A stretch of 64,000 nt of DNA from Ruditapes philippinarum (taxonomy: Eukaryota), in contig NW_026866839.1 of assembly GCF_026571515.1 (NCBI RefSeq), positions 1 to 64,000 on the forward strand, read 5' to 3'. The position numbers and the translations under genes were made by a program. The notes below the pieces were generated by a model that ran no database searches, had not been told where the DNA came from, and was given only the letters and a program-made list of their open reading frames with translations. Below are positions 8,132-60,553 of the stretch, one piece after another (positions within the stretch are counted from its first letter, which is position 1; every line of letters starts with the position of its first letter).

Positions 8132-10438
8132 ATGTTGTCTCCATTTCTGAAATACACTATATTCTGCGCGTTGTTCATTGGTTCAATTAGAAGCTGGGAT
8201 CCAGATGCTGGCCTCATCAAGTCCTATACGAAGTTACATAACGTTACAGTCCAAGCATCGTCTGGTACCCATCCTGAAAATGTTATTGACAGTAACGACA
8301 ACACGAACTGGGTATCAGCGCACTGTTTACCATACGGGTATCTGAATAGAAATGATGTTAATATAATTTTTGGCGCGTGCAAAACTGGCGCGTGCTTATC
8401 AAGTGGGAATTCTGGGAATGGTCTCGGAGTCGCGACAGACGGAAACCCTTATACGGCAGCGCACGTGCAGAAAAACGGGTCATCAGCGTTTCTTTCTGTG
8501 GATTTAGTAAATTCCCAAGTTTTGCAAATAATTTCAGTCGGCGGGGTGTTTCCAAGTCCTACACATCTATATGTGTATGAAGTAACAAAATTTGGCTCTC
8601 AAAAACATTTACTGAAAACTTTTACATCCACTGATAATTATAAGAATATTAATATTCCTGGAACGAACTTCACAGTTAACAAACTAGAGCTCGTTTCTGA
8701 TTCAGGTTTCACTGTAAAGGACATGGGTGCAATTGGAGAAAATGGGTGCACAGAGCATATAACAGTTGATCTTGGTCATGAACGCAGCGTCGGTACGATT
8801 CGAACACGCCACTGGGCCGGAAGTAATGCGGCTACAAAACTTGTACTTAAAACATCAACAAACGGACATATATGGAATATGGTTGCTGATTTAGACCCAA
8901 ACGCTGTACACGCCGTCACTACACGTATTCAGCCAGCTGATATTCGTTACATTACTTTAGAATACAAAGTCCATATGGTTAATCATAAAAAGGTTTATTG
9001 TTTTGAAGTGGATGCTTGGGACGAAAACGGCATATGGGGACCTGAAATATCCGCTAAACCACAGGTTAACACATTTCGAGAAATCCTCGGTGTGAACGGG
9101 ATCTGGGGCTGGGGAACAAAAAGTTACAGTGACAAATTAGGACCTAACGAAGGACCTTTGTTATATAGTGAAGTTGCAAGTCACGCGCGTAATTATCATA
9201 ATCTCGTCTGGGACGTGACTGATCCCGATCTTGACCCTGAATACGATGCAATGGCAGCCGGGCATGGAACACAAGCAATGTGGTGGTTGAACTGGGATAC
9301 AGAATACCGTGCATGGAATGCAGCAAATTTAACCGTAGATATTTCCATACAATTCACAAATAAAACAGTACCGGAGAGCAAATGGAACACACCTGAGCAG
9401 TCTGCTTTTCACTACGGGCAACAGGTAGCAAAACATTTTGGTTCAGTTCAGGGCAATGGTCTTGTTCAAGCAGTCGAGGTCGGCAACGAACCATGGGACT
9501 ATAACGCTGCATTTTATGCCTCGGTCTTAAAAGGAATGGCAAGCGGTCTTAAAAGCATGGATAACAAATTGATTGTTATTCCTGGTACTTTCCAGGCCGA
9601 GGATAAAGACCACGAAAATACTTACATTGGTACCCGGGTTCTTCCGGAAGTAGCGGACAATATAGATGTCATTAACTGTCATACTTACAGTTTTATCAAT
9701 GATGACGCAGGTATACGAAAAGGAACGTATCCAGAAAATAAACTGTCCACATTTAATAACATCCGACCAATAACAAGATGGCGGGACACAAACACACCGA
9801 AGAAACCCATATGGGTTACAGAATGGGGATGGGATTCTGATGGTGTGGGAGAACAGTGTAGAGGAACAGAATGTGTAAGTGAGCGTGCACAAGCTGTGTA
9901 CGCTGTACGAGGTCTTTTATTGCTGGCAAGGTCAAATATTGAAAGAGCCACGTGGTATTTCTACGCCAACACCGAATGTGATACTTTATTCTGCCGCAGT
10001 GGACTCACTTCGTCTCACAAGAATAATTTTCAGAAGAAAGCAGTATTTTACACATTTCAAAAATTCTTACAGTACGTTGGTAACACTTACTTTCTTGGTA
10101 TTATCCAAGAAAACGACAACGGTTTTGTTTATGCTTTAAGTGACAAGCCACATGCATGTTTGGAAAATGCAAGCGTCTCTGACTTGCTTCAACATGCATC
10201 GCACGTAATCGGTTGGCTTCCGGTTGATATTAGTAATAAAAATTCAAGACAAACCACATTACAACTTCCGGCGGAAACACAAGTATCATTTGCATGGAGA
10301 ATCGCCGGAAGTTCAAATGATCGATTATTCAAGACGACAGATTATCAGCAAAGCGGCAATTCACTGGAAATAACTTTAAAAACTGAGCCTTTGGTTTTGA
10401 AATTTAACCACAAAACTATCACAAGTATTGTAGGGTGA
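8132..10438 (+). CDS. Secreted clan GH-A glycoside hydrolase (GH39/GH5-like TIM barrel) with N-terminal F5/8 type C (discoidin/CBM32)-like domains, 768 aa, single coding exon
   Basis: Hydrophobic signal peptide. Discoidin motifs 'ASS..PENVIDSNDNTNW', 'ITVDLG', 'STNGHIW', 'RYITL'. Acid/base motif 'VEVGNEPW', 'DVINCHTY', nucleophile motif 'KPIWVTEWGW'. Uninterrupted ORF. Confidence 0.85.
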   Translation: MLSPFLKYTIFCALFIGSIRSWDPDAGLIKSYTKLHNVTVQASSGTHPENVIDSNDNTNWVSAHCLPYGYLNRNDVNIIFGACKTGACLSSGNSGNGLGVATDGNPYTAAHVQKNGSSAFLSVDLVNSQVLQIISVGGVFPSPTHLYVYEVTKFGSQKHLLKTFTSTDNYKNINIPGTNFTVNKLELVSDSGFTVKDMGAIGENGCTEHITVDLGHERSVGTIRTRHWAGSNAATKLVLKTSTNGHIWNMVADLDPNAVHAVTTRIQPADIRYITLEYKVHMVNHKKVYCFEVDAWDENGIWGPEISAKPQVNTFREILGVNGIWGWGTKSYSDKLGPNEGPLLYSEVASHARNYHNLVWDVTDPDLDPEYDAMAAGHGTQAMWWLNWDTEYRAWNAANLTVDISIQFTNKTVPESKWNTPEQSAFHYGQQVAKHFGSVQGNGLVQAVEVGNEPWDYNAAFYASVLKGMASGLKSMDNKLIVIPGTFQAEDKDHENTYIGTRVLPEVADNIDVINCHTYSFINDDAGIRKGTYPENKLSTFNNIRPITRWRDTNTPKKPIWVTEWGWDSDGVGEQCRGTECVSERAQAVYAVRGLLLLARSNIERATWYFYANTECDTLFCRSGLTSSHKNNFQKKAVFYTFQKFLQYVGNTYFLGIIQENDNGFVYALSDKPHACLENASVSDLLQHASHVIGWLPVDISNKNSRQTTLQLPAETQVSFAWRIAGSSNDRLFKTTDYQQSGNSLEITLKTEPLVLKFNHKTITSIVG

Positions 10439-37700: not shown

Positions 37701-38344
37701 GTAAATCGACCTGATATGGTTATTCGAAAACAAATCTTCCCATGTTTGTAACTTGGTAAAAATATGGCGATAAAGTTCGTAAATTATGTCATACGTTCCA
37801 TAAAGCATACGAAGCGCCATGTTGATAAAAATATATACATGAATATTGATATTTTTTCTATAGCTTGAATATTTCACTTATCTGAAGGCTTGCAGCTTTT
37901 AAAAACAAAATATTACTGTGCACACCTATGAATGTAATTTCAATCAATCGTTTGATTGGAGAATGATTGTTAATAACTGATACACAACGGTGTAATAATG
38001 TTTTAATCGCACCAGGATTTTGCATATGTTGACGAAAAACACTTAAGGAAGGATTGACACAAAAAACATGAATATATTTTGTTTAAAGAAGGATTGACTT
38101 AAACTAAATTGATATACATTTTATTATATTAACTAGTACATATCTACGTCACTAATCGATGTTTTTATTACGTGGTCCAGTAACTTTATGAATTATTCAA
38201 AACAACGAAAGTATTACGTTTAGATATTTTGGCATCTTATTTTAACTACTATTGCACAGAAGGAAAAAAAGATGAACAATCCGTAAATTTTTCTATATTG
38301 TATTTATTGTCCTTGTTATATTTAAAGATTTATATATCACTATT

Positions 38345-38782
38345 TATTCCCGTGTTATATAGCATTAACGTGTTATATAGCATTAACGTGTTATATACCA
38401 TTCCCGTGTTATAAAGCATTCCCGCGTTTATAGCATAAACGTGTTATATAGCATTAACGTGTTATATAGCATTAGCGTGTTATATAGCATTAATGTGTTA
38501 TATATCATTCCCGTGTTATAAAGCATTAGCGTGTTATATAGCATTAACGTGTTATATATCATTCCCGTGTTATAAAGCATTCCCGCGTCTATAGCATCAA
38601 CGTGTTATATAGCATTCCCGTGTTATAAAGCATGAGCGTGTTATACAGCATTAACGTGTTATATATCATTCCCGTGTTATAAAGCATTCCCACATTTATA
38701 GCATAAACGTGTTTTATAACATTCCCGTGTTATATAGCATTAACGTGTTATATAGCATAAACGTGTTATATGGCATTAACGT
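38345..38782. repeat. 18-bp minisatellite (~24 units)
   Basis: Variants gcattaacgtgttatata / cattcccgtgttataaag. Only ~5 units at the paralogous site 6314-6398. Confidence 0.9.
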
Positions 38783-39264
38783 AAACAATTAAATAACAGT
38801 AATACTTCAAACGGTAAAAAGTGAGGCATTGATAAAAAGATAGATTTAAAATATTTTTTAAATAATATATAAACTTTTTAATGATGCACACAATATCCAG
38901 CCATGTTCCATATGTATGAAAAGCATACAATGTATGTTTCCTTTCTGTTTATAAAGAAAATTCGGACATTTTTCAATTAAACGACTATAGAAAACTGATA
39001 TAATTATATACAAATGTACCCCACTGTTAATCAGCAAGAAATTAACCGTAATTAAATATAACGGGTTGATAGTTGTTGCTTTTTTTTTTTTTTTTTTTGG
39101 GGGGGGGGGTGTTTGTTTGTTTTAACTTCTAGCAAATAACCTTCAAGTAAACTCAAATGTGACGTCAAAAATAACAGTTTTAACAAACTTTATAAGAGCC
39201 TTTTGTGTCTAATTAACGTACGGCAGTACCATCTATATCACCACCTTCCCTTTAGATCTAATAT

Positions 39265-39468
39265 GAGCCACGTACGACAAAACCAACGTAATGCGTTTGC
39301 GACCAGCATGGATCCAGACCAGCCTGCGCATCCGCGCAGTCTGATCAGGATCCATGCTGTTGGCTATCAGTTTCTCTACTTGTAATAGGGTTTGTAAGCG
39401 AACAGCATGTATCCTGATCAGACTGCTGGTCGCAAACGCATTACGTTGGTTTTGTCGTGACGCGGCTC
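39265..39468. mobile_element. Palindromic MITE (family copy 2)
   Basis: GAG...CTC termini flanked by atat/atat. Absent at the paralogous site ~7512. Confidence 0.8.
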
Positions 39469-40526
39469 ATATTATCAATACATTAAATCTACAACCGGTT
39501 CATAAAACTAAACAATCCCCGGGACACTAATGATTGATCTCTGTATAACAGGATAGGTAAAATCTAGATAAAGATGATGATACATTGATGTAACATCAAA
39601 ACATTCGTACGTACATCCTGTTTTAAGTGTCTCTATATAAACATATTTGAACTGAATATGTGGCACATATGATTGTATATAGTTTGTAGGTTCAGGGGAA
39701 ATTAACTTGTTACGTTTTTATGTTCATTTTTATAACCAGAGTATGTTTTTTATTAAATCTTTTTTTTTCCTTTTTTTATTGAGCGATAAATGATACAGAA
39801 TTATAACAAAAAATGTGAAGATGACTTTTTAAATCTAGAAGAATTGTTATACTGAATTTTGCAGCCAAAAAGAGTATATCAATTGAAAAAATTTTAGGGG
39901 TGTTCTCAGAGAACTTAAAAAAGTATCTTCTAATCAATAAATATAATATTAATATTCTGTTTTTTGTTTTTTTATTTGTGCATGCATGCGTGCCAGTGTG
40001 CGTGCGCTTGTGTGTCCTTCCAATTTGTATTTAGTCATGTAATGGACTATATTTGATATTTTTTATTTTCAGATAAACATGTTGTCTCCATTTCTGAAAT
40101 ACACTATATTCTGCGCCTTGTTCATTGGTTCAATTAAAAGCTGGGATCCAGATGCTGGCCTCATCAAGTCATATACGAAGTTACATAACGTAACAGTCCA
40201 AGCATCGTCTGGTACCCATCCTGAAAATGTTATTGACAGTAACGACAACACGAACTGGGTATCAGCGCACTGTTTACCATACGGGTATCTGAATAGAAAT
40301 GATGTTAATATAATTTTTGGCGCGTGCAAAACTGGCGCGTGCTTATCAAGTGGGAATTCTGGGAATGGTCTCGGAAACGCGACAGACGGAAACCCTTATA
40401 CGGCAGCGCACGTGCAGAAAAACGGGTCATCAGCGTTTCTTTCTGTGGATTTAGTAAATTCCCAAGTTTTGCAAATAATTTCAGTCGGCGGGGTGTTTCC
40501 AAGTGTCACAGGGTGAGAAAAATGTG

Positions 40527-40599
40527 CAGCCTGACCGGGACTCGAACCCGGGACCCTCGGAATACCGTACCGCGGCTCTACCGACTGAGCTATCCGGCC
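40527..40599 (-). ncRNA. tRNA-Lys(UUU)-derived tRNA-like sequence in the TRIM LTR (repeated at ~40778-40850, ~41028-41100, ~41279-41351); not a decoding tRNA
   Basis: GGCCGGATAGCTCAGTCGGTAGAGC...GAGGGTCCCGGGTTCGAGTCCCGGTCAGGCTG. A box, B box, D arm and T arm are intact. The anticodon arm is mismatched and lacks U33. T5 run lies 4 nt downstream. Confidence 0.75.
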
Positions 40600-41235
40600 G
40601 CTTACACATCTTCTCTCCCTATATAGTGAACAGTTCTGAACCGTGACATACTCCCCTGCTATATTGAAATTCATCCTCGAATTTCTAAGGTTACAGAGCA
40701 ATGTGAATTAAACTCTAAGCTATATTCAGTCACGGTCCCCCTTTGGGCACCACATGTCACAGGGTGAGAAAAACGTGCAGCCTGACCAGGACTCGAACCG
40801 GGGACCTTCGGAATACCGTACTGCGGCTCTACCGACTGAGCTATCCGGCCGCTTACACATCTTCTCCCCTAAATAGTGAACAGTTCTGAACCGTGACATA
40901 CTCCCCTGCTATATTGAAATTCGTCCTCGAATTTCACAGAGTTACAGAGCAATGTAAATTAAACTCTGAGCTATATCAGTCACGGCCTCATGTTGGGCGC
41001 CAAATGTCACAGGGTGAGAAAAATGTGCAGCCTGACCGGGACTCGAACCCGGGACCCTCGGAATACCGTACTGCGGCTCTACCGACTGAGCTATCCGGGC
41101 GCTTACACATCTTCTCCCCTATATAGTGAACAGTTCTGAACCGTGACATACTCCCCTGCTATATTGAAATTTGTCCTCGAATTTCACAGAGTTACAGAGC
41201 AATGTGAATTAAACTCTGAGCTATATTCAGTCACG

Positions 41236-41253
41236 GCCCCACGTTGGGCGCCA
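41236..41253 (-). other. 18-nt primer-binding site complementary to tRNA-Lys(CUU) 3' end (second perfect copy at 41487-41504)
   Basis: TGGCGCCCAACGTGGGGC is the known Lys1,2 PBS and sits 2 nt after the LTR-terminal CA. Confidence 0.9.
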
Positions 41254-41552
41254 AATGTCACAGGGTGAGAAAAATGTGCAGCCTGACCGGGACTCGAACC
41301 CGGGACCCTCGGAATACCGTACCGCGGCTCTACCGACTGAGCTATCCGGCCGCTTACACATCTTCTCCCCTAAATAGTGAACAGTTCTGAACCGTGACAT
41401 ACTTCACCACAATATTGAAATTTGTCCTCGAATTTCACAAAGCTACAGTGCAATGCTAATGGAACTCTGAGCTATAAGCAGTCACGGCCCCACGTTGGGC
41501 GCCAAATGTCACAGGGTGAGAAAAATGTGCAGCCTGACCGGGACTCGAACCC

Positions 41553-41797
41553 ATGACAACAGCTCTCGCTAAAAGTTCTCATTTCTTGTGCGCATGCGTA
41601 AAGGTTAGCGTGACCGAATTCAAAAATGAAGTGAATGAGGCCCGTCAACGTGTTACAGGTCAAATGAAGTTATTAGTATGAAGTTGAATAATGATATGAA
41701 TGATTGAAAAAGAGACGATAGGGGAATCATGGGAATGATATAGAGTATGGGTATGAATTACAGAGTATTCTAGCAAAGACAAAATGACCCTGTGACA
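41553..41797 (-). repeat. Truncated Gypsy 3' LTR (U3 side), preceded on the minus strand by PPT ggcggggaagta (41798-41809)
   Basis: 41556-41797 matches 50558-50799 with one substitution seen (gttattagta vs gttataagta). Confidence 0.9.
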
Positions 41798-42837
41798 TAC
41801 TTCCCCGCCAAGGATAAAATGGCGTCCCGACATTTTCAACTCATAAACAAAAATTACTGATACCTGCATATATATCAAAAACCATACTGTCTAACTACAG
41901 TAGAACTAATACTAAGGACATGGGACTCGTTAAAGTACTTCTGTCCTAACAGTGAAATTACCAATAAAGGTAATGTATACTGCTTGAAAATGCTGTAAGG
42001 CATTAACAACCAGAAAAGTGCCCGAAGCACTGTTGGGAATGGTGAACGCGTTCTTTGGGATTGTGAACCATGCACGTTAGTACACTGACTCATCTACAAA
42101 ACTGTAGAACTTGTGTTATGTTTTCACATTACACAATATTCAAAGTAACTCTTTCAGAGTAAATAAAATTTGTCAAATTTCTTTGAAGAAATTTTACAAA
42201 TCGGTTAAATACAAACCATACTTACAAATATATATGACGAAACCCTACACTCATATGATAACACATATGAATAAACACTAATCTCAAACATCAGTAAACC
42301 AACACTGACAATTTGAAATAAAGATTAATATACAAAACTCAACTGAAACAATTTATTGTTCTCATCTTTTGTAAAACAATTTACAAAAAATGACAAAATC
42401 AAATTTGACATCTGCCTGAGAATCTGTACTACCGTTTCCTACTCAAATTCCAATCATCAGTCATCCAGCGCCCCACTGTGTTCCTCAGATGTATGTCTAT
42501 GTTGTTTCATACTGTTTTGGTGACACTTTTGCTTGTGTCCCTTGTTGTTTTCTCGTCTACGGTAAGTATCTTCCCCATTGCCTCTAGTTTTTATTTCTTT
42601 GATTAACCCCCCCCCCCTTCCCCCGGTCTCCTGTCCCTTTCCCCTTTGTGGGCCTATTATTATTTTCTTTGAATTCCTAATCAGTTACAAATTATTTATC
42701 ATTTAATGATTAACGTGTCGTTGCCCTGTCCTTTTTATGTTTGGGGTCCGCCTGGGCTCCTTGCCATTGGTTCTTGTTGCTGGGTCATATGGGGGTTGCG
42801 TTCATTGAACGCCGCCTTTCCTTGTTGATCTTGTTTT

Positions 42838-45800
42838 TCATATTTTCTCTCTTACTCTAGAAGTTCTTCGTGGAAGAAAAGGTGGAGCTTCCGGTCTTAA
42901 CAAACTATTACCTGTACGTCTTGCAGGAATTACATACTTATCAGATTCCGCGGATACGACTGATGGATTGTCTGAAATAGAGGTTTTAATGGAAGTACTC
43001 GAAGACTCAGAAGATTTAGGTGCTGCTGTGTCTGAAAAGGAAAGAGAATTGACAGGAGAACTTTGTTGAAAATTACCATTACTGGGAGAGTGATGTGACA
43101 GTCGTTTCGGTTCCTGTAGCGGGAGACCCATGAACGAAAGTAGCATATTACGGTGAAGTAATTTTGGTGCATCATCACTATCTTCCGGCTTAACCTGAAA
43201 TATAGGTAAATCTAGGTTAGGCTGATCAACTACAATGTAGATAGTTTTACTCCAACGATTAGCTAACTTACACTTGCCTTTTAAACCAACGTTTCTCACC
43301 AATACACGGTCACCTGGAACAAGGCGTACTTCCCGAACACGCAGATTGTAACGCTTCTTGTGTCGTTTCGCTTGACGTTTCGCCTCACGACTAGCAACTC
43401 TGTAAGCGAAATTCAAGCGCTTCCTTAAGCCTTCAACAAATTCAGCTGGCTTCTTGGTGTGAAAAGAAATGTCTGGGTCGATCCCGAGGAAAGCGTCTAA
43501 TGCAAGGCGAGGATGGCGCCCAAACATAAGAAAATGTGGTGTCAGACCTGTCGTCTCATGCCGAGTTGAGTTGTATGCATGTACTAGAGCTGGTACATGA
43601 GCTTTCCAATTCAGCTTCTTTTTATCCTCCAAAGTACCTTGCATATTCAGAAGTGTCTGGTTGAATCTTTCAGGCATTCCGTTACCCTGGGGATGATAAG
43701 GCGTAGTCCTAGACTTAGTGATGTTAGCAAGCTGACATAACTCCTTAATAACCGCTCCATCAAAATTCCTGCCTTGATCACTATGTAGGCGACTGGGGAA
43801 ACCATAATGACAAATGAAATTATCAAAAAGTGCTTTCGCCGTGGTGCGTGCCGTTTGGTTCCTAGTCGGTATGGCTTGTGCATAATGGGTAAAGTGATCA
43901 GTGATTACTAACACGTTCTCATATCCACCTGCTAACATCTCTAAGGTCAAAAAGTCCATGCAGACAAGCTCTAGAGGATAAGAAGAATGGATTGGAATAA
44001 GTCCTGCAGAAGTTGACAAAGGTGTTTTCCGCCGAATACAACGAGGACACTTCCGTACTCGAGTTTCAACAAAACCATCTAAACCTGGCCAAAAGAAACG
44101 AGATTTGATGAGGGAATTGGTTCTGTCAATACCTTGATGTCCGGCATTGTCATGGAGACCAGTGAAAAACCATATCCTTAAATGAGTCTGGCAGAAACAA
44201 GCTGATCTACGGGATGATTACATACCTGACCATGACGATAAAGTATACCATCCTTGATAAAAAGACTGGGCCACTCTCGAAGGTATTGACGAACAGATTC
44301 AGTTTCCCGTGAAGAAAGTCTTCTAGTTGGTTTATGACCAGTAGAAAAGATCTGTATAAACCTTGAAATTGTAGGATCTTTTGTCTGTTCCAGCTTCCAA
44401 TCAACATCACTAAGGTAGTCTGATGAAACATCAGTAGTTATGTCAACAACTTTCTGACTCATAGAGATACATTCAACAGCAGGTAATTCCTTAATATACA
44501 TACAACCTTGTATAATAGCCTTGACAGCGTCATTGAAAACCACAGTTTCAGATGAATTAGGAACTCTTGAAAGAAAGTCTGCATCTATGTTTGAACGTCC
44601 AGCACGATACTGTAAGGTGAAGTTGAAAGATGCTAACGCAGCTAACCATCTATGTGAAGTTGCATCTAGTTTGGCGGAAGAGAGCACATACGTTAATGGG
44701 TTGTTATCTGTACGAACTTTGAAGGAGTTACCATACAAATAATCGTTAAATTTGTCAACAACAGCCCATTTCAACGCAAGAAACTCTAACTTATGAGCAG
44801 GATAATTTCGCTCATTAATACGTAACCCTCTGCTGGCGTAGGCGATTACGCGTTCTTGACCGTCCTGCTCCTGATAGAGGATCGCTCCTAAACCGGAAGT
44901 ACTTGCATCGATGTTCAAGATGAACGGCATTGTAAAATCGGCATAGCCAAGAATAGGAGGAGTAGTCAACTTCTCAATGAGTTGTTCATATGCCTCTTGT
45001 TGATCTGAATTCCAAGTCCAAGTAGCTGCATCCTTCTTACTCTTACCTTTAGTGTTTGTCGGGTGTCCAGCAAGGAGGTCATTCAAAGGCTTGGCTATAC
45101 TAGCATAACCGGGAACAAAACGACGATAGTAGCCGGTAAAACCTAAAAAACTGCGAAGATCCTTAAGACACTTCGGAACGGGCCACTCCTTCAAAACTCT
45201 GGTCTTCTCCGGGTCAGTCTCCACTCCGTCAGCACTAACAACATGACCGAGATATGTGACACGAGGGAGGAAAAACTCACACTTGCTGCCTTTAAGCTTC
45301 AAACCAGCTTCCTTGAGGCGTTGAAAAACAGCATCAAGTCGTTTAAAGTGCTCATCTAACGTCTTGGAATAAACGATGACGTCATCCAAATAAATCAAAC
45401 ACTCCTTTAGATGAAGTTCCCCCATACATCTTTCCATCAGGCGCTGGAAGGTGGCGGGAGCGTTGGTTAGTCCGAATGCCATCCTTTCACACTCATAAAA
45501 ACCAAGTGGGCCGACCGAAAAAGCAGTCTTGGGCTTGTCAGACTCCTTCATGGCAACTTGCCAGTAACCCGATCGTAGGTCAAGTTTGCTGAAGATTTTG
45601 GAACCTGCGAGGGAATCAATGGTTTCATCAATCCTTGGCAAAGAGTAGGCATCAGTAACTGTCCGACTATTCAACTTTCTGAAGTCTATGCAGAACCTGA
45701 GCGAATTGTCTTTCTTGCGAACAAGGACGACGTTACTTGAGAAAGGGCTTTTGGATTCCCTAATGGCTCCTGCAGCAAGCATATCTTGGAGATGTTCCCT

Positions 45801-46829
45801 AACCTCTTCATACATACCAGGAGGGATGCGACGATAGGGGTCCTTGAAAGGCTGTGGATCAGTCAAGTTGATCTCATGCTCAACAAGATTAGTGCAGCCA
45901 AGGTCTGTAATACCAGTAGAAAATATACCTTTCCATTTCTCGAGGAATTGTGTAGCGTCTCTAAGATGATCTTGTAATAAAGTGCTCTTGGATAAGTCTA
46001 CTCCTAAATCTGCCAAAGACATATCTTTAGTACTGATATTAGACGATGTGGCTTCCAAAGGGTCAACTGATCGAACAACTTTCACATCTTGAAGAAGGCA
46101 GATTGAACTTTTAGGCATGATACGAACAGGTCTGACACTCATGTTACAAATGCGAACCGGAACTTTAGAGAAGGAACGGCTAGGGTCAACTTCAACAAGG
46201 CGAGGGCAAACATTGAAAGAGTGCAAGTTCTCATCATCCTCTGTAACACCATGTCTAATGGAATGACTTCCACGAACAATACCTGGAACAGTACAAACCT
46301 GAAAAGGCTGAATATACATAGGTCTGGTGATAAAAGCCTTCACCTGAACTGCAGTGTTATCCGGAATAGAAGAAAAGACTTCACCCCATGGAGATGGAAC
46401 TGAATCTGGTGTGGTAATACATCTCTTGTAGTGGCTAGTAACATTAGTACCAATAATAAGAGGTATAGACTTGGAATAAGAAGTATCAGGTACTATCAAC
46501 ACAGGAACAGAGACAACAGAATCTGAAGAAAGACAAGGAACAGAAATATCCAGGATAGAGTAACCAATATAAGGAATAGATGAATCATTTGCTCCTTTGA
46601 CACAGAAATCAGAAATACTCAACAGCTCTGGACAAGGATCTAAAGATGTAAAGTAAGAATGAGCAAGAGTTGTGACCATAGAACCAGAGTCTAAAAGTGC
46701 TGTAGCAGGGCATCCATTAACAAGAACATCTGTTTCATTGGAATGTCCAACCAAAGGGATACTTGGTGGGCCTCTCTGACTGGGCGGTCCTCCTACTGGC
46801 CCTTTGGTGGAGGAGCCTGCTGGTTTAAA
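42838..46829 (-). pseudogene. pol: Gypsy pol (protease, RT, RNase H, integrase), frameshifted between RNase H/tether and the integrase zinc finger
   Basis: PR 'ALLDSGS', RT 'LRFCIDFRKLN...YLDD', RNase H 'IDASTSGLGAIL...LEFLAL...TDNNPL', IN 'HSDQGRNF...PQGNGMPERFN'. Two single-T insertions at ~44196 and ~44166 break 'QLVLPDSFKDMVFTGLHDNAGHQG'. ORFs 44178-46754 and 42838-44019. Confidence 0.93.
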
Positions 46830-48147
46830 GGCTTATCTGTCTTGGATGGGGTAGCAGAGTTAGAACTTGATGGTGGTTGCGGCTCTGTCTCTTGACTTCG
46901 GATGTCAGTACCTCTACCTCGCCATCGGTTCCCATCTGACCTATACCTATTCTTCTTGACATCATCAAGGTCTCTTTCAATGCGAGTGACTCTGCTGTTC
47001 AATGTCTTCAACTGAGCTGTAACATCCTGTAACTCCTGTAAAATTTTGGATTCAACAGAGGTGTTACACTGTCTTACATCCTGCACTTTGGACCTGTCTG
47101 AAGAATTAGAAGGAAAAGAAGAAGTAGAAGAAGTGGAAGATCTATCCCTGGTAAAGGTACCTGATGATTTAACTCCTTGTTGAGCCAACTTCATCTCCTC
47201 TTCAACAAGTCGCAACTCTCGCCTAAACCTTGTATAATCAAGTTCTGCCTCAAACTTGTACCTTGTGGCGTTCTTCAAATCCTGGTTCCTTAGTCCAGAC
47301 CACAATCTGTTCCTCAACATGTCATCCCGTGTCTTTCTATCGAGTGTGATTTGGGAATCAACAAGAAGATGTTCCAATCGAAGACTATAGTCGACAATTG
47401 ATTCACCCTCCCGTTGACTTGCAGAGTAGAATTGCTCTTTCAGCCTCTCTGTTGATGCCACATTACCATAAGTTGCATCCATTTCTCGAACGATTTCATC
47501 CACAGTCGCCCACTCCCCAAGATGTAACAAAACTGATCTGGCCTTCCCACGCAGACTGCGCCGAATCGATTCCAAAATGGAATGTTCAGAATACATACCG
47601 CTTTTGAGAATACAGTTGACTTCATACTTCCAAACAACAAATTCCACATCTTCTTTCTTCAATTCCCTGAAAACTGAGGTAATTTAGGAAGTCTCTGTGG
47701 TGGAAAATTGTAAGGACTGCTATAAGAATCATGCTGTGGGAGAGAAGCAGATCTGGGAAAGGATTGTGATAATTCTTCAAACTCAGGCCTAGAATAATAA
47801 TCAGATTTTCTGGGCAAGCTTGAGCCAAGAGGGGTGGAATCGAAATCAGGACGAAAAGAAACACGACTCTGACGCCTATCAACAAAGGGTGACGGGGCAC
47901 TTTCATGAATAGAATGCAACCTATGAGGAGATAACACAGGAGGAGAACGATCACGATGTCTATGTCGGGACTCCCTATTAGGTGTATGTGTATCAGGATC
48001 AGCATCAGTGGAGAGTGAACGTCTATCAGTTCTAGGTTGCACTGTATCAACAGTATAACCAGAACTCAAAACACGTCTCTAACAATATTCCAGATCTAAC
48101 TCATCACGACTATCTTTTCCTCTAGGTGTGGTATCGTCATTATCCAT
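46793..48147 (-). pseudogene. gag: Gypsy gag (PNMA-like capsid), disabled
   Basis: 'LPKLPQFSG/KKEDVEFVVWKYEV...IRRSLRGKA...Q.EGESIVDYSLRLE' is typical of PNMA/Gypsy gag. 1-nt deletion at ~47665. In-frame TAG between the ATG at 48147 and ORF 47659-48069. Confidence 0.85.
46823..46829 (-). other. Putative -1 ribosomal frameshift heptamer T TTA AAC joining gag to pol
   Basis: X XXY YYZ heptamer at the gag end. The -1 frame is open for 25 codons into the protease ORF at 46754, and GC-rich sequence follows. Confidence 0.7.
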
Positions 48148-49421
48148 ATTGATAATAACTGACATAACGTGTCAACAAATCAACAACAACAACTTAGACT
48201 GATCAAAATAAATAAAATGAAGGGCACTTCTTACTTGAAATATTATTCCAAATAAAAACTTTCAAATGAAAATAGATAAACTCAACTAATACACAAAAAT
48301 AAATTTTTGTTCACAAGATGGCATACATTGTACACCATACACAAATATTGCAATTGAAATTTGTAATGGTAATATGTATATCTAGCAGAATTTACACACC
48401 AGATGAATTTTATTTACCAAAGACAATTCAGGCCTTCAGTAAATGAATAATTAAAACACACAAAAATGATGTCCCATATTGTACACCATATAATTTTTTT
48501 TCTTTACAAACAAAATAAATATCACATAAATAAACTTTCAAATTTGCAGCTTTTATGTGCACCAATTAAATGTCTGTAAATGCAAGCACTATATTCAATG
48601 CTGGTAATTCCTTTACACTGTACTAACTTCTATAGTTTTCCAATGTGAGAATGTATGCAATATATAAATATCAAGTCCAGTACTGTATCCAACTTGTAAT
48701 AAAATTGATTGGATTTCACCTACCAAACAATTCACAAGGGAAATTCAAATAACAATGAAGACAATATATGCACACACTACTTTCATATGACTGCTATTCC
48801 CAAATGTCTTCAATAATCACTTGATTTAATTCAAACTAGAGCACAATGTTTCATGTACTTTCCTGGCTAAACCAGTACTGTAAAATTCACAACAACAAGG
48901 ATTCAATTGTACCACACTATAATACCTGGTCCAACTAGTTGCGGAAAATTACTTCAATTTCCAATCTTCTCCGGAAAACTGCATTCAAAAACCCGAGAAA
49001 AGTCTAAACAAAATACAATTGTCACTGCAAGTACACCGCAATTGTAAAATGTTTTGTTTTTATTTCAAAAACAGTTCAATTTTAAATAAATGGAACAATT
49101 TTATACACGGACTAGAATATTTAAATAATATAAGAGATTTTATCAAAGGAGTATCTAATCCCTGTGATAAAATGTCAATTATTTTATAGTATTTCTTGTA
49201 TTTTGATATTTATTAGGCTTTCACTGTTATGACAGAAGTACCAACAAGTTGAACTAAACTATCATTACACTACAAGACTACATTACTGACTTTTTCATAC
49301 TCAGGCACCTAATACAAAACATTTTCCAAAGACACATAAATTTTATGAAGTGTATGTGAGCCGCCAAAAGATTAATTAATTAATAAAGCTTCCAAAATTA
49401 AATTTCTTCCAAAGATGAAAT

Positions 49422-49460
<39 letters not shown>

Positions 49461-50268
49461 GGTAATAGTACAAAAGTATGTCACAAGCTTTTCAATAAAG
49501 TGGACTGTTAAAGTGGGGATGTCTTACAGGAGTATAGTAAGAATAAGACAATACAGATGGTAAAATGGAAAGAAATGGCTTCTAAAGTATACATGTAGTA
49601 TCAGGGACCAGAAGAAAGATATGAAATGGTTATCTCACCAATCACCAGTTACCAAAATGAAAATGTATTAATGCAATGAAATCTGTTATTCTGTTAATGT
49701 AGTGCTCAGTGCCAAGGTTGACTTCCACACAATACACACAACTTCAATGCCAAACAACCTGTCAAATATAAACAATAACTGTAGAAATCTATGACAGTGA
49801 AGAAAAATATACAATGAACAATTCTTAGATGGTAACTACAAAGGATTTTAAGAAATGTTATATAAATCAATATATCTAAAGGTTAAATCACTAATTAATG
49901 TCATTCAAGTCAATGTTTATCACTGTAATCTCCTTCCAATAAAAATGTAAACAAAATGTCCAGAGGTAGAATCCAACGTTGAAAAATAAAGAAATCCTGG
50001 TCTGTTGAGTTTATGCACTAGTGTTTCAATGTAGAGTACTGTATATTAATTAAAGAGGCCTATATTTACTTTAGAAAGCTTTCATTTGATTGTTAAAACA
50101 AAATATAAAATTTTCGATACAACATGATGGACGGATTTCCTTGTTGACATTCACTATGTGACGTAAGCAGGGTTTCCCAATTCTCATTGGCTGATACAAG
50201 CGGGGAGAAAATCCACCCGAACTGAGTTCGTCCTCAACTGTTTCGCACCAAAACGTCCCAAATGTAAC

Positions 50269-50279
50269 ACTGGCCACCA
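50269..50279 (-). other. Gypsy primer-binding site TGGTGGCCAGT (tRNA-Ile(AAU)-like)
   Basis: Lies 2 nt after the LTR end (..CCGTGACA-TT-TGG). 11-nt complement to tRNA-Ile 3' ends of the ...ACTGGCCACCA type. Confidence 0.65.
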
Positions 50280-50281
50280 AA

Positions 50282-50799
50282 TGTCACGGATATACGTGAG
50301 TTCTCACTCGGGAGGATAGGGCGTTCAAAGAGGAACCTGTAAATATATTGTTGGCACACAATAAAATAGAATACGGAGTCAATGAAAAAAACAACAGCTC
50401 TCGCTAAAAGTTCTCATTTCTTGTGCTATTGATAATTCCAAGCGAAATACATACACATATCATAGTAATTCATGTTTACAATGTTTTATAACCTCAAATA
50501 TACCTGTAAATATATTGTTGGCACACAATAAAATAGAATACGGAGTCAATGAAAAAAACAACAGCTCTCGCTAAAAGTTCTCATTTCTTGTGCGCATGCG
50601 TAAAGGTTAGCGTGACCGAATTCAAAAATGAAGTGAATGAGGCCCGTCAACGTGTTACAGGTCAAATGAAGTTATAAGTATGAAGTTGAATAATGATATG
50701 AATGATTGAAAAAGAGACGATAGGGGAATCATGGGAATGATATAGAGTATGGGTATGAATTACAGAGTATTCTAGCAAAGACAAAATGACCCTGTGACA
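50282..50799 (-). repeat. Gypsy 5' LTR (518 bp) with internal 92-bp direct duplication
   Basis: TGTCAC...GTGACA ends. 50335-50426 is repeated at 50502-50593. Confidence 0.88.
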
Positions 50800-53700
50800 C
50801 AAGTCCTACACATCTATATATGTGCATGTATGGAGTAACAAAATTTGGCTCTCAAAAACATTTACTGAAAACTTTTACATCCACTGGTAATTATAAGAAT
50901 ATTAATATTACTGGAACGAACTTCACAGTTAAAAAACTAGAGCTCGTTTCAGATTCAGGTTTCACTGTAAAGGACATGGGTGCAATTGGAGAAAATGGGT
51001 GCACAGAGCATATAACAGTTGATCTTGGTCATGAACGCAGCGTCGGTACGATTCGAACACGCCACTGGGCCGGAAGTAATGCGGCAACAAAACTTGTACT
51101 TAAAACATCATCAAACGGACATATATGGAATATGGTTGCTGATTTAGACCCAAACGCTGTACACGCCGTCACTACACGTATTCAGCCAGCTGGTATTCGT
51201 TACATTACTTTAGAATACAAAGTCCATATGGTTAATCATAAAAAGGTTTATTGTTTTGAAGTGGATGCTTGGGACGAAAACGGCATATGGGGACCTGAAA
51301 TATCCGCTAAACCACAGGTTAACACATTTCGAGAAATCCTCGAGGTGAACGGGATCTGGGGCTGGGGAACAAAAAGTTACAGTGACAAATTAGGACCTAA
51401 CGAAGGACCTTTGTTATATAGTGAAGTTGCAAGTCACGCGCGTAATTATCATAATCTCGTCTGGGACGTGACTGATCCCGATCTTGACCCTGAATACGAT
51501 GCAATGGCAGCCGGGCATGGAACACAAGCAATGTGGTGGTTGAACTGGGATACAGAATACCGTGCATGGAATGCAGCAAATTTAACCGTAGATATTTCCA
51601 TACAATTCACAAATAAAACAGTACCGGAGAGTAAATGGAACACACCTGAGCAGTCTGCTTTTCACTACGGGCAACAGGTAGCAAAACATTTTGGTTCTGT
51701 TCAGTGTTCAGGGCAATGGTCTTGTTCAAGCAGTCGAGGTCGGCAACGAACCATGGGACTATAACGCTGCATTTTATGCCTCGGTCTTAAAAGGAATGGC
51801 AAGCGGTCTTAAAAGCATGGATAACAAATTGATTGTTATTCCTGGTACTTTCCAGGCCGAGGATAAAGACCACGAAAATACTTACATTGGTACCCGGGTT
51901 CTTCCGGAAGTAGCGGACAACATTGATGTTATTAACTGTCATACTTACAGTTTTATCAACGATGACGCAGGTATACGAAAAGGAACGTATCCAGAAAATA
52001 AACTGTCCACATTTAATAACATCCGACCAATAACAAGATGGCGGGACACAAACACACCGAAGAAACCCGTATGGGTTACAGAATGGGGATGGGATTCTGA
52101 TGGTGTGGGAGAACAGTGTAGAGGAACAGAATGTGTAAGTGAGCGTGCACAAGCTGTGTACGCTGTACGAGGTCTTTTATTGCTGGCAAGGTCAACTATT
52201 GAAAGAGCCACGTGGTACTTCTACGCCAACACCGACTGTGATACTTTATTCTGCCGCAGTGGACTCACTTCGTCTAACAAGAATAATTTTCAGAAGAAAG
52301 CAGTATTTTACACATTTCAAAAATTCTTACAGTACGTTGGTAACACTTACTTTCTTGGTATTATCCAAGAAAATGACAACGGTTTTGTTTATGCTTTAAG
52401 TGACAAGCCACATGCATGTTTGGAAAATGCAAGCGTCTCTGACTTGCTCAAACATGCATCTCACGTAATTGGTTGGCTTCCAGTTGATATTAGCAATCAA
52501 AATTCAAGACAGACCACATTACAACTTCCGGCGGAAACACAAGTATCATTTGCATGGAGAATCACCGGAAGTTTAAATGATCGATTATCCAAGACGACAG
52601 ATTATCAGCAAAGCGGCAATTTACTGGAAATGACTTTAAAAACTGAGCCTTTGGTTTTGAAATTTAACCACAAAACTATCACAAGTATTGTAGGGTGAAA
52701 GAAACTATTGTGCTCATCTATTTTTCCATTTATTTTGCTGGTCAAATTATTAAATATATGAACTTATTTTGATTGAGCGTTTTGTCCTTATACTTGTATA
52801 CTTTTCCCTAAAATATCTCAGACAATCTAAACTCATTTAAAACTCTTGAACCTAAAGTCGTAATGATAAATGGAAAATGGCACCGTAATTTCTGATTTGA
52901 AAATAAAACACTTTGAATATTCGTTAATTTTATAAATTGTAATAATACAAATGTTGAAATATTGTTGTATATATATATTTCTACCAAACGACATTTTGTG
53001 AGTTATCACGCCTGAATATTATAGTACAATTGTATTGGAATCTTATGTCGATCTCAATAGTGTTCAGTGATGAAAACATTACTGTTCATTACATTACATT
53101 ACATTACATTACATTACATTAGTTGTTGTTGTTTTTTAACACTGATAAAATTGAATATAAAATGGTTCTGAATATATGTATTAAAGTAAATATACTTCAG
53201 TTTACCTTCTTTGTCAAAAAATAAATTCATGCACGGGTTATTACACGTGGGTCTCTAAATTGAGCATCGGTAAAAATATACACGAATTTAAGCTGATCCA
53301 AATGTGCACTTTAACCCCCAGACAATATGTGAAACCAAATGAGTTCTGACGTGTCAAAAAAATTCATGCTTAAAAAATCAAACAAACTCCTTTTGAAACA
53401 TTCATTAAGATTTTGCTTCAAACAACCAAATTGGCTATCAAATTACATCTCGGCTCCATATGTGCTGTAGAGATCCATAGGTGCATAATATAAAAATCAT
53501 CAAAACAGTTACGGATACCTTTTCATAAACCATTCAATATTTTATTCGTTTTTGTGTCATTCTGAAATAGGAAGTAATATTTGGAAATAATATATATAAT
53601 TTATTCAGTTGAAAGACGAAAAGATTTTTAACTAAAAACATGTCAACTAATAATTTAAGAAATTCCATATATAAGCGAACCTTTTTTTAATTTTATATTA

Positions 53701-56917: not shown

Positions 56918-58145
56918 CCTGTAAATTTAATTAAAAATTATTATTATCATCATAAATACAAGTTACAATAACTAAAGAAAATGCATTTCTACAATTGACT
57001 TTGTAAATATCAAATCAAATTTTCTTCTGGAGATGAAAAATTTAACAGTTTCATACTTGTTAATGTTTCTGTTTTAATTGTTCAATTTTACTATGTTTAT
57101 TGCAGCTTTAAGGAACCTTGAGGTTTAATCTGAAGCAAGAACAAAGTTGATTTCGTACGTAAGGTCTTATCTAATTCGATTTTTCTATTTTTATCAATAT
57201 ATATATATATATATAATAATCAATACTATCAATCGATATTGGAATCTTCGAATTGGAATTTGTAATTTGATAGAAACGGAACAACTGCAGAAGTAAAAGA
57301 GATAATTATCGTTCAAAGATAGTTTCATTATTACAGTTAAAATTAAAGACATAAAGGAACAAAAATAATATTAATTTCTAGGAAATGTTTGAAAAACAAA
57401 TTTTGATTTTGCCACCATGTGTTTATTTATATGAATTGTACCTTGAGTAATTTACTTCGTTTCTTTACTTCCCTTCAGGAGGCATTAAAGGTCTTCTTTA
57501 CCTTATAATTCACTTCAAAGGTGATTTTTAAGCATTTTCTTTATTAATCTTGATTGAAAGTTAATAAACCCTGACACGAATTTAGGTGTTCAAATGTCAC
57601 AACTTAGGAGAGGGGGAAAATCAGAGGATATTCTGGTTACGCTTGATCGACGCAGTATCTTAACATAGTGAGATTACATGCCCATTAAAGATATGTAAAT
57701 AGAGCGCAGAATAGTGTTTGATGGAGGATCACTCATCTTGTTGATCGTTAATAAGAAAATTACCATCCAGCAGCCGTCTACCTTTTGGATACGTTATTTC
57801 TGTTCACCAAAGGGAAATTATTTTATGATAGTTTTACCATTATTGATAAGTCAAGACTGCAGACTTTCCTTGTTGATCTTGTTTATCATAATTTTTGTGA
57901 CAACATAGCTTGGTTTAATACATATTTATAGGAGAAATTGTGTAAGAATGTATATTTCTTTCCTCAAATGTAGTGTATATTGTTAACCAATATAACGGTT
58001 ATTTTCATAATGAATTGTTAATATGAGTATTTTAACTTAGAAACTTCGTAATGTTGTTGTTGTTTTTATGATAGATAACATTAAAAATGAACTCACATAA
58101 AGAATGTTTAGACTGTAATATCTACTAGAATTAAGTTGTATTACT

Positions 58146-59939: not shown

Positions 59940-60553
59940 AAGGCCGAAGATTTGCGATTATGCTACATATATTAACTTCCTTTAAGAAATCTTGTGTTTT
60001 ATAAATGATTTTATAGGCTATCTTGCCAATAAGTAGCGTTGTGTAAACTGTAATAGAACCAAATTTAAATAAAAAATATGAAACTAAATATACGCTTTTC
60101 TTTATTATAGAGTAATTAAACATTTTCGTAATAACATGTACAGAAAACTTCCGTTTATATAATATCTCATTTACAATACCCAAATGTTTAAATTATTAAG
60201 TTAAATATCATTTTATAAAATGACTTTTTTCACAAATTTGAATTATCAATATCCGGAGATTGACGTAAAAGGCCGAAAATTTGCGATTATGCTCCACATA
60301 TCAACTTCCTTTTATTATACCTTGAAGAAATCTTGTGTTTTATAAATGACTTTATAATTATCTTATCAATAAGTAGCGTTGTATAATCTGTAATAGAACC
60401 AAATTCAAATAAAAAATATGAAACTAAATATATGCTTTTCTCTATTATAGAGTAATTAAGCATTTTCGTAATAACATGAACAGAAAACTTTCGTTTATAT
60501 AATATTTCATTTACAATACCGAAATGGTTAAAATATTAAGTTAAATATCATTT
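59916..60553. repeat. ~330-bp tandem duplication upstream of cGLR copy 3
   Basis: 'atcaatatccggagattgacgtaaaaggccgaa...ttaagttaaatatcattt' occurs from 59916 and again from 60245. Confidence 0.9.

Follow-up and report, generated by a model that had tools for sequence, protein, structure and literature searches.

The 64-kb window (the whole stretch of DNA that was analysed) contains a tandem array of small LTR-bounded units which abuts a Ty3/Gypsy element, both of them lying within a host gene. This locus raises the question of what the array is, and how it came to share one target site duplication with the other element.

Structure and classification of the array

TRF placed the tandem array at 40499-41552 (period 251, 4.2 copies, 93% matches, score 1819), and mapping of LTRs on the minus strand of 40504-41552 revealed four TG..CA LTRs of 144-145 bp and a 46-bp LTR stub, alternating with four spacers of 106-107 bp each. 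Both analyses agree with the first-pass annotation, in which an LTR-PBS-spacer-PPT-LTR array with a period of ~251 bp was described at 40504..41552, except that 41552 is not the end of the feature, as was assumed there: a Gypsy element is joined at this point, and the right copy of the target duplication lies at 50800-50803. All four whole LTRs have the termini TGTCAC..GTGACA. The monomer of ~395 bp has two LTRs and no coding capacity, and is shorter than the 1000-bp limit for TRIMs. No extra copies of the array unit were found by blastn elsewhere in the window. The array is almost certainly a Helenus-type TRIM, and the earlier suspicion that such a class was probably known proved correct, as the array agrees with the definition of Helenus (Kojima 2024, PMC10886601). 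Its parts are as follows:

40504..40648, minus strand: last Helenus LTR (L5), 145 bp, with the tRNA-like cassette at 40527-40599
40649..40754, minus strand: spacer I4; PPT (40649-40659) intact, PBS with 4/18 differences from that of the first unit
40755..40898, minus strand: Helenus LTR L4, 144 bp, the most divergent LTR (5-7 differences from the others)
40899..41004, minus strand: spacer I3; PPT intact, PBS with 2/18 differences
41005..41148, minus strand: Helenus LTR L3, 144 bp, whole, with an Rfam tRNA match
41149..41255, minus strand: spacer I2; both PBS and PPT intact
41256..41399, minus strand: Helenus LTR L2, 144 bp, with an Rfam tRNA match at 41279-41351
41371-41376, 41333-41344, 41290-41300 and 41270-41274, minus strand: motifs of L2 (TATA-like, box A, box B and T5, respectively)
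41400..41506, minus strand: spacer I1; 18-nt tRNA-Lys(CUU) PBS (41487-41504) intact, PPT decayed (4/11 differences)
41507..41552, minus strand: truncated first Helenus LTR, beginning at box B; the final 46 bp are left and 98 bp are lost

The truncated first LTR is identical to L5, L3 and L2 (46/46) and shows 3 differences from L4. The PBS corresponds to tRNA-Lys(CUU) over its full 18 nt (judged by eye from the tRNA 3' termini in Fig. S2 of PMC10886601), whereas the match is shorter in the bivalve rows of Fig. S2C. Both PBS and PPT had been assigned to every unit; they are present as motif types, but the PBS is intact in two of the four units and decayed in the other two, and the PPT before the 3' LTR is intact in three. 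The first PBS and the last PPT of the array are preserved, and the most changed sites are the last PBS (4/18) and the first PPT (4/11), a pattern read from n=4 units in which part of the I4 PBS difference (2 of the differences in this region) consists of common variants of the family.

Exact breaks at each LTR terminus into unrelated flanks were observed in 85-103 contigs or 348-428 reads (two DNA runs, one RNA run), and loose ends at both exact LTR termini appeared in 4/4 runs. Together with the CAAG duplication described below, these breaks corroborate the earlier view of dispersed, TG...CA-ended copies with a TSD, and not of a SINE satellite. In DNA, the depth of the LTR is ~14-15 times that of the spacer, which is undercounted, and the summed LTR depth is ~1,300-1,500 times that of the Gypsy interior, a value that is not a copy number. 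The consensus letters of the LTR flanks indicate a loose Y-A-T-R target preference, and in run X23 another copy perhaps has the same 4-mer on both sides (mixed consensus, agreement 0.57-0.66).

A scan with a 19-nt PBS/LTR pattern yielded three metagenome, no viral and two genome loci. One of these (L001) represents a sister family, 72% alike over 399 bp, and no target duplication was seen by eye around its copies. Another (L003) is a Helenus-like LTR without a T-run after box B, an observation that counts against the explanation favoured below. The remaining loci (L002, L004 and L005) were chance 19-mers and were dropped. A 24-nt LTR pattern had 0 matches in viral or genome contigs.

Among the Helenus families compared (PMC10886601), the array is most similar to the bivalve Lys-primed group, i.e. 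Helenus-3_CGi, -3_CVi, -4_SaGl and -4B_SaGl, with Helenus-3_CGi (oyster) being the closest. Compared by eye, this group shares with the array the TGTCAC..CCTGTGACA ends, a tRNA-like cassette whose loop is similarly of Thr(GGU) type, the T-run after box B, the Lys(CUU) PBS, the short stem-loop before the PPT and the 4-bp duplication; its LTRs measure 139-140 and its inner parts 103-120, compared with 144-145 and 106-107 here. By eye, the LTR ends, anticodon-loop letters, an inner motif and the PPT are common to the array and Helenus-3_CGi/4_SaGl. An identical family was not found in parts 1 and 5-9 of Data S1 of the same paper (six motifs, 0 matches). All 51 bivalve Helenus families come from Pteriomorphia (PMC10886601). 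Unlike the published families, the one described here is arrayed and joined to Gypsy, and its host is likely a venerid, either the Manila clam or a near relative. The range of Helenus is thereby likely widened beyond Pteriomorphia to a venerid, which matters for the age that Kojima estimates for its origin: Helenus either predates the pteriomorph ancestor or has moved sideways. By itself, the array is only a new family record, as the Helenus class is published.

The TRIM layout, solo repeats and tandem arrays are also known from biv-TRIM of other bivalves and of Ruditapes, likely the host genus here too, for which no partner element was found (PMC6934838). However, biv-TRIM has repeats of 202-218 bp, an inner part of 77-80 bp and no canonical PBS (PMC6934838), and it is by these sizes and the PBS alone that the array is set apart from it. 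Cassandra (PMC7215508) likewise has a Pol III cassette and a terminator in each LTR and forms LTR-inner-LTR arrays, but it is a plant element with 5S and measured transcripts, whereas the cassette of the array is tRNA-like and its transcription is a prediction.

The tRNA-like cassette of the LTRs

All four whole LTRs match the Rfam tRNA family (32.6-44.5 bits, gathering score 29) and are also called as tRNAs by ARAGORN. Box A (LTR position 56/57), box B (100/101) and the T5 run (126/127) are each present in 4/4 LTRs, all of which conform to the TRGCY..YGG (box A) and GGTTC (box B) pattern, and T5 invariably sits 16 nt before the PBS. The TATA-like word at LTR position 24, which is 20-25 nt upstream of the tRNA-like start, reads TATATA in two LTRs and TATTTA in two. 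The A/B boxes, the upstream TATA-like motif and the T run just downstream, as listed in the first-pass annotation, were thus all recovered.

ARAGORN assigns the cassette to Pro(CGG), the Rfam alignment places GGU (Thr) in its anticodon loop, as in Helenus-3_CGi, and the D arm may resemble that of tRNA-Lys(UUU). Judged from these calls, the isotype is not settled; it differs between the families compared. An Rfam scan of 39500-50000 with E up to 1 returned tRNA matches only, and the 5S segment characteristic of Cassandra and Ajax was absent.

Across two families, 19/23 columns of the A/B boxes are invariant versus 7/18 of the anticodon arm, so on this scale the boxes are better conserved than that arm, but within the array alone a difference was not detectable (0/8 variable columns fall in the 23 box columns, p = 0.24, not significant). 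Cloverleaf pairs are kept in 86% of cells. Stem covariation, which had been suggested as a check, is seen in 3 pairs changed on both sides between the two families, but it reflects two related families only. In line with the scrambled anticodon arm of the first-pass annotation, the anticodon stem pairs least well of all the helices (69% over 7 LTRs), with 2/5 positions unpaired in all four window LTRs.

The four tRNAs called by ARAGORN and Rfam, and the degree of cloverleaf pairing, might suggest a tRNA gene cluster or a tRNA-SINE satellite instead of an LTR element. We consider the chance of this negligible, given the PBS, the PPT, the TG..CA ends, the target duplication and the exact-terminus dispersal, to which the weakness of the anticodon stem and the difference in isotype between families may be added; the LTR flank data refute it. 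A cluster of functional tRNA genes was also rejected, as the anticodon arm is not intact and the isotype is inconsistent. tRNA finders will inflate their counts here, with 4/4 LTRs passing as tRNA genes.

The composite insertion in a host gene

The array occupies the left end of a 10,296-bp insertion (40504-50799), and a Ty3/Gypsy element makes up its right part. The insertion splits a gene for a secreted-type protein with an F5/8 type C domain (the domain was read from the paralog). The first-pass annotation mentions neither this join and the gene disruption nor that the PBSs have decayed unequally from unit to unit. The features around and to the right of the array are:

8132..10438, plus strand: intact paralog with a 768-aa frame, the empty-site control outside the element
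40079..40503, plus strand: 5' part of the host gene, 6 mismatches in 425 bp versus the intact paralog (8132-8556)
40500..40503, plus strand: target site duplication CAAG, left copy; single copy at the empty site of the paralog (8553-8556)
41553..41555, minus strand: junction filler of 3 bp; CAAG copy and end microhomology absent
41556..41797, minus strand: truncated Gypsy 3' LTR, first 242/518 bp, 276 bp lost; 241/242 identical to the 5' LTR
41798..41809, minus strand: Gypsy polypurine tract
42838..44217, minus strand: Gypsy integrase frame (H2C2 zinc finger, rve), different from the frame of RT/RNase H
44178..46832, minus strand: Gypsy pol frame (RVT_1, E 1.5e-34; RT_RNaseH_2, E 1.9e-30)
46793..48078, minus strand: Gypsy gag region, two overlapping frames, with a PNMA-type domain in 46793-47683
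50269..50279, minus strand: Gypsy PBS, 11-nt match to tRNA-Ile(AAU), by eye against Fig. S2C of PMC10886601
50282..50799, minus strand: complete Gypsy 5' LTR, 518 bp, within which a stretch of 92 bp is exactly duplicated
50800..50803, plus strand: target site duplication CAAG, right copy (chance of the 4-mer 0.003)
50804..52698, plus strand: 3' part of the host gene, 36 mismatches in 1882 bp versus the paralog, with its own 6-bp and 7-bp insertions

The region 47659-48078, which gave no Pfam match, is assigned to gag by inference. The Gypsy pol had no relative in viral contigs and the host protein none in the PDB; the paralog protein is 96% identical to a Ruditapes philippinarum protein. The left flank aligns to paralog positions 7515-8556 and the right flank to 8553-10670, an overlap of 4 bp, and this one duplication, CAAG, encloses the Helenus array and Gypsy together. 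The comparison with the paralog confirms the 4-bp TSD of the first-pass annotation, although it is not assignable to Helenus alone, because it encloses the composite.

The spacer pairs differ at 5-24 of 107 columns, and the host paralogs at 42 of 2307 (1.8%); 5/6 spacer pairs exceed twice the paralog divergence (p < 0.001), I2-I3 being the exception. As the spacers diverge more than the host paralogs, the four-unit array appears to have arrived preformed, which this sequence comparison makes fairly probable, and its expansion in place after insertion is ruled out, assuming no gene conversion between the paralogs. The identity of the outer LTRs (46/46) is uninformative here, because two inner LTRs match equally.

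Both elements have TGTCAC..GTGACA ends, with TT preceding the PBS and TA following the PPT. The 3' end of Helenus is identical to the 5' end of Gypsy for 11 bp, and its 5' end to the 3' end of Gypsy for 8 bp, the first 6 bp being common to all four termini. The inner ends of both the array and Gypsy are truncated, and the outer ends of the composite are alike only in the 11 terminal bp, not as homologous outermost LTRs. A shared packaging hairpin was considered and rejected, since two similar-looking Gypsy stretches did not surpass shuffled sequences in folding (z +0.8 and +1.2). The stem-loop before the PPT forms in 4/4 spacers and was set aside as evidence, because the folding z-scores of the spacers (-1.8 to +0.7 for whole spacers) and of Gypsy are unremarkable.

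Proposed origin of the composite and of its mobile RNA

As one duplication spans both elements and their termini are compatible, we suggest that multi-unit Helenus DNA was integrated jointly with Gypsy DNA in a single event, to which we give an even chance at this one locus. More tentatively, and with somewhat greater doubt than belief, the locus may be the fossil of one integrase complex that inserted an end of Gypsy DNA together with one of multi-unit Helenus DNA at one target. In the joint event, an integrase complex would link the array by its 3' end, and Gypsy by its 5' end, to the two strands of one target. The partners would have entered either separately or already joined, and the two inner ends would be trimmed and closed by end-joining of the host. 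An ordinary strong-stop template switch was ruled out, because both ends would come out alike; this rejection does not cover a double non-standard switch. Template-switch complex insertions (Sabot and Schulman 2007, PMC1950507) also have two elements under one target duplication and are interpreted as one integration, but those elements belong to one family with near-identical outer LTRs, whereas here the outer ends are unrelated and both inner LTRs are cut.

The main rival is that two independent insertions occurred at the same CAAG site, in either order or on two haplotypes, and that the inner CAAG was later deleted together with 98 bp of Helenus and 276 bp of Gypsy. We regard this as rather unlikely, with evidence on both sides. 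Head-to-tail dimers produced by double insertion at one site are documented by McGurk and Barbash (10.1101/158386), where deletions across such junctions are common for hobo (24/36). The Helenus LTR is very abundant (by summed depth, not copy number), and CAAG fits the loose flank preference, which makes two same-site insertions less unlikely. The unlike PBS types point to separate helpers, and the Gypsy end would lie ~50 bp upstream of the tRNA-like box A, a distance targeted by the non-LTR element TRE5 of Dictyostelium (PMC5911963). On the other hand, tRNA-targeting Gypsy elements mostly insert 1-33 bp upstream according to the same paper, and three events are required. The dimers of 10.1101/158386 are usually of one family and keep a target copy at the junction, whereas here none is left, only the 3-bp filler; this lowers the probability of two insertions without excluding them, because the later deletion would erase the target copy. 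In that study, LTR recombination is held responsible for tandems of LTR elements, and double insertion is attributed to DNA transposons and non-LTR elements. Finally, no Gypsy end is seen in the consensus of the loose ends that lie upstream of 90 and 97 Helenus LTR starts (agreement 0.42-0.43), although a consensus would conceal a minority of such ends.

In the Gypsy LTR, the letters of the filler occur again after another 6 nt. Such recurrence is a hallmark of templated end-joining. It fits a normal insertion after which an LTR end was replaced by DNA of the other element, through break repair or through nested insertion and deletions, with the common TGTCAC terminus, shared by all four ends, serving as microhomology. 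Chimeric and reshuffled TRIMs are common in sugar beet (PMC13570524). We nevertheless find this replacement improbable, as the outer breakpoint must hit the 6-bp terminus exactly, a second unrelated junction is needed, and an inner target duplication is absent. An assembly join of two repeats or haplotypes at 41553 is less probable still. The sequence on both sides is repetitive, and in the two DNA runs (X1, X2) none of the 16 contig pieces listed, beyond which there are 19,050 more, bridges the junction, a weak test, as these runs may derive from other individuals. Against such a join, the outer ends are consistent with a single target duplication, and the sequence of the host gene continues precisely from the empty site.

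According to Kojima, it is not known how TRIMs remain helper-dependent, and animal helpers have been inferred through PBS likeness alone, Helenus being matched to Gypsy families via a common PBS (PMC10886601). Here the Gypsy PBS is of the Ile(AAU) type and that of the array is Lys(CUU), which counts against a routine Helenus-Gypsy partnership. If the reading of one integrase complex is true, a helper of an animal tRNA-promoter TRIM would be physically documented at this locus, and the partnership would be set by compatible DNA ends rather than a common tRNA primer. The composite matters more than the array: if unlike ends that share one duplication were counted genome-wide, the identity of helpers could be tested directly from assemblies. 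Being one locus with a live rival, it is a lead rather than a result.

As to the RNA step, the cassette is probably a promoter, judging from its motifs. Transcription by Pol III from the cassette, as in a TRIMp3, would begin near LTR position 50 and mostly end at T5, leaving an ~80-nt by-product, and occasional read-through would give monomer RNA, or multi-unit RNA from an array, in which the tRNA-like stretch would serve as terminal repeat. Reverse transcription by a Gypsy-type enzyme would then be primed by tRNA-Lys(CUU) at the first PBS and also at the last PPT; as priming needs just these two sites, decayed inner ones would be carried along. That precisely the two sites which a multi-unit RNA requires are intact supports the one-RNA view, and the array likely derives from an older one by way of a single read-through RNA.

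Discrete RNA starts or ends were not found in the 4-6% analysed of each of two unstranded 150-nt libraries, which were hardly suited to showing any; RNA rows X18-X20, with small shares, are left out of this result. Most RNA reads are likely LTRs within host transcripts, because 84% (X21) and 55% (X23) of the mapped reads continue into unlike sequence. These reads, and the position of T5 ahead of the PBS in every LTR, would also suit a mainly TFIIIC-binding or structural cassette, with the mobile RNA made by Pol II entering from outside, which we think possible, at roughly one chance in three. However, two families ~72% alike have box A/B, the T arm and the T-run in common, but not the TATA-like word, and Cassandra offers a Pol III precedent. 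We lean slightly towards Pol III read-through as the source of the mobile RNA, in which case a leaky T5 would allow whole arrays to move as one RNA. Multi-unit (2-5-unit) read-through transcripts are reported for Cassandra arrays (PMC7215508), and first T-tracts are partially read through in yeast (10.1101/2021.08.27.457903).

Structure and family of the Helenus array

The tandem repeat at 40499-41552 (93% matches, 4.2 copies, period 251) is composed of the parts listed below. The minus strand is the reading direction of the Helenus element, a miniature LTR element (TRIM) with a tRNA-like cassette in its LTR.

40504-41552, minus strand: Helenus array
Four whole LTRs: 144-145 bp, start TGTCAC, end GTGACA
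Fifth LTR: 46-bp stub
Four spacers (I1 first, 41400-41506; I4 last, 40649-40754): 106-107 bp, TT followed by an 18-nt primer site (PBS), purine tract (PPT) last

The LTR-PBS-spacer-PPT layout at about 251 bp proposed in the first-pass annotation is therefore borne out, as are box A, box B and a T5 run, which occur in 4/4 whole LTRs. The TATA-like motif noticed earlier in some units reads TATATA in two LTRs and TATTTA in the other two. The Rfam tRNA model matched all four whole LTRs above its gathering score, and no other Rfam match was found in 39500-50000 at E up to 1. The isotype of the cassette is inconsistent: Pro(CGG) by ARAGORN, loop GGU by Rfam and Thr(UGU) in a sister family. By eye, the primer site matches the tRNA-Lys(CUU) 3' ends in Fig. 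S2 of PMC10886601 at 18/18 positions for bee and 17/18 for Aplysia. The 9 nt directly after it (41478-41486 and the equivalent places in the other spacers) match part of the tRNA-His PBS of the same figure, which may be the trace of an earlier primer switch or a chance likeness.

These features are the ones that define Helenus in the accessible part of Kojima 2024 (PMC10886601), where animal families have 4-bp duplications; the tRNA-bearing class had thus already been described, as the first-pass annotation noted. By eye, the nearest families there are Helenus-3_CGi, -3_CVi and -4/-4B_SaGl, whose LTR ends and loop letters agree with those of the array and which also have its Lys primer and its stem-loop word ahead of the PPT. 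No identical family was present in the accessible text and supplement, and six motifs searched there gave no match. We conclude that the array is a new family of the known Helenus class, set apart from the Kojima 2024 families by eye and motif. All 51 bivalve Helenus families of that paper belong to Pteriomorphia, and the terms 'Venerida' and 'Heterodonta' are absent from its accessible text. The protein of the intact paralog of the interrupted host gene is 96% identical to a protein of Ruditapes philippinarum (order Venerida), and the array likely extends the range of Helenus beyond this bivalve set. The biv-TRIM element of the same genus differs in its sizes and in being without a PBS (PMC6934838, in part), and the accessible part of PMC11481361, which treats bivalve SINE arrays, does not mention Helenus.

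The sister family, about 72% alike, lies on a metagenome contig (L001). Positions 48-625 hold a full Helenus element and, at a distance of about 20 bp, one more LTR, and near 1000-1070 there is an additional tRNA-like box B stretch.

Dispersal and conservation of the LTR cassette

Two DNA runs (X1, X2) and two RNA runs (X21, X23) were placed on 41302-42550, a stretch running from one permuted unit across the junction into the Gypsy tail; 9,964 contigs were placed in X1, 8,245 in X2, and 6,738 reads in X21. At least 90 contigs (X1) and 97 (X2) break at the LTR start, and at least 85 and 103, respectively, at the LTR end; the corresponding numbers of X21 reads are at least 348 and 428. The flanks beyond the termini are mixed and AT-rich (agreement 0.40-0.43 among the X1/X2 loose ends listed), and their letters suggest a loose Y-A-T-R target preference. 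Such breaks into varied flanks refute the SINE-derived satellite that the first-pass annotation had named as the alternative.

In the DNA runs, the LTR has about 14-15 times the summed depth of the spacer and 1,300-1,500 times that of the Gypsy interior; depth does not equal copy number, and spacer depth is undercounted because I1 is a deviant copy. Over I1 (41400-41506), X23 RNA showed one spacer haplotype, seen in neither X1 nor X2 DNA, with an LTR/spacer depth of 2.7, likely a single full-length copy within a host transcript.

Within the array, 8/145 LTR columns vary versus 27/107 in the spacer (p = 1e-5). The earlier expectation that the A and B boxes are better conserved held across two families, but not within the array alone (p = 0.24 against the rest of the LTR). 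Over the 7 LTRs of the two families, whose rows are non-independent, 19/23 box columns are invariant versus 73/121 elsewhere (p = 0.03) and 7/18 in the anticodon arm (p = 0.005). In the proposed stem check, pairing was kept in the D stem (100%) and T stem (97%) and less so in the anticodon stem (69%). L001 retained the T-run, but not the TATA-like word, and another locus, L003, has a Helenus-like LTR without a T-run. Judged from sequence, this pattern would fit a promoter and a bare TFIIIC site equally.

No discrete RNA start or end appeared in the RNA runs, whose libraries are unstranded and whose reads mostly continue into the flanks. Fewer T can suffice to stop metazoan Pol III, and Pol III leakiness in the clam is therefore only our inference. 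In yeast, the first T-tracts are often read through and the minimal terminator is 5 T (10.1101/2021.08.27.457903, in part). Cassandra arrays yield transcripts of 2-5 units, according to the accessible part of PMC7215508.

The composite of Helenus and Gypsy

The array interrupts a host gene together with a Ty3/Gypsy element:

40500-40503 and 50800-50803: CAAG copies
40504-50799: composite; right 9.2 kb Ty3/Gypsy, same strand as the array
8132-10438: intact paralog with empty site

On the paralog, the alignment of the left flank stops at 8556 and that of the sequence beyond 50799 starts at 8553. The two thus overlap at 8553-8556, which makes CAAG a duplication flanking 10,296 bp (by chance, 0.003). 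The Gypsy part encodes a PNMA-type gag, RT, RNase H and integrase, with frame changes near 47.67 kb, 46.8 kb and 44.2 kb; that at 46.8 kb may be a natural gag-pol shift, and the others probably mark breaks. The element has a complete 5' LTR (518 bp), and of the 3' LTR 242 bp are left, 241 of them identical (0.4% difference, 95% interval up to 2.3%). At the junction, Gypsy has lost 276 bp and Helenus 98 bp, 3 filler bases are present and CAAG is absent.

We favor, at about even confidence, a single integration of Helenus and Gypsy with unlike ends, followed by repair, since one such event would account for the single duplication, the common orientation and the trimming of both inner ends. More tentatively, one integrase complex may have joined a Gypsy DNA end and a multi-unit Helenus DNA end into a single target. 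Two insertions at one site plus a deletion, for which there is precedent (10.1101/158386, in part), seem rather unlikely, although the abundance of the Helenus LTR, the loose target preference and the mismatch of primers (Gypsy Ile(AAU) vs Helenus Lys(CUU)) favor them. The termini of the two elements are alike crosswise, with 11 and 8 bp in common, and both have TA after the PPT and TT before the PBS. End replacement via the common TGTCAC is improbable, and an assembly join at the junction is very improbable. Among the 16 contig pieces listed of 19,066 in X1 and X2, none bridges the junction.

In the accessible parts of the sources, published single-duplication complexes are of one family with outer LTRs alike (PMC1950507), chimeras between TRIM families occur in beet (PMC13570524), and tRNA-targeting retroelements are treated in PMC5911963. 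In a literature search limited largely to open-access papers, no case turned up of a TRIM and a Gypsy element, or of unlike ends, inserted within a single duplication. The composite is unusual and could reveal how Helenus-type elements meet helpers.

Other features of the Gypsy element were also observed. Its 5' LTR carries an exact 92-bp duplication (50335-50426 and 50502-50593), with a splice-acceptor-like word at the end of either copy, and the composite junction falls within this repeated segment. Words resembling the Helenus pre-PPT loop lie at 50230-50245, just after the Gypsy PBS, and 41820-41835, just before the PPT; folding was unsupportive. In the 3' untranslated region, a second very high-copy repeat starts at 42468 and may run to roughly 42830 (depth >1 million in X1 and X2; 1,145 X21 RNA loose ends at 42468), likely a nested insertion.

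Origin of the array units and neighboring sequences

Of 2,307 coding bases, 42 (1.8%) differ between the two host copies; provided there was no gene conversion, this difference sets a limit on the age of the insertion. Five of the six spacer pairs differ by 11-22%, far above twice this value (I2-I3, at 4.7%, does not). Under the same proviso, divergence of the units in place is therefore ruled out.

Among the four units, a small sample, it is the first PPT and the last PBS that have changed most, with the first PBS and last PPT still intact; two letters of the I4 PBS region are common family variants. A multi-unit RNA primed at its outer sites would predict an intact first PBS and last PPT. 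The array could instead have been built up in place through repeated recombination of incoming DNAs, a process mentioned for yeast (PMC11899658, in part), but decayed sites would be unexpected in fresh incoming DNAs.

The F5/8 type C domain protein encoded by the intact paralog (8132-10438) has many full-length relatives (~40% identity) in bacteria, metagenomes, molluscs and one brachiopod; on these similarities, an old transfer is possible. Three tandem-duplicated long single-frame genes (14570-16540, 23574-25532, 54809-56926) lie in segmental duplicates that also contain the host gene, and the one scanned has Mab-21/cGAS-like domains. A dispersed MITE-like element of ~200-250 bp with long inverted arms is found at 20071-20315, 39259-39474 and 60547-60760, and an 18-bp minisatellite lies upstream of each host gene copy (38314-38782 and 6314-6557).
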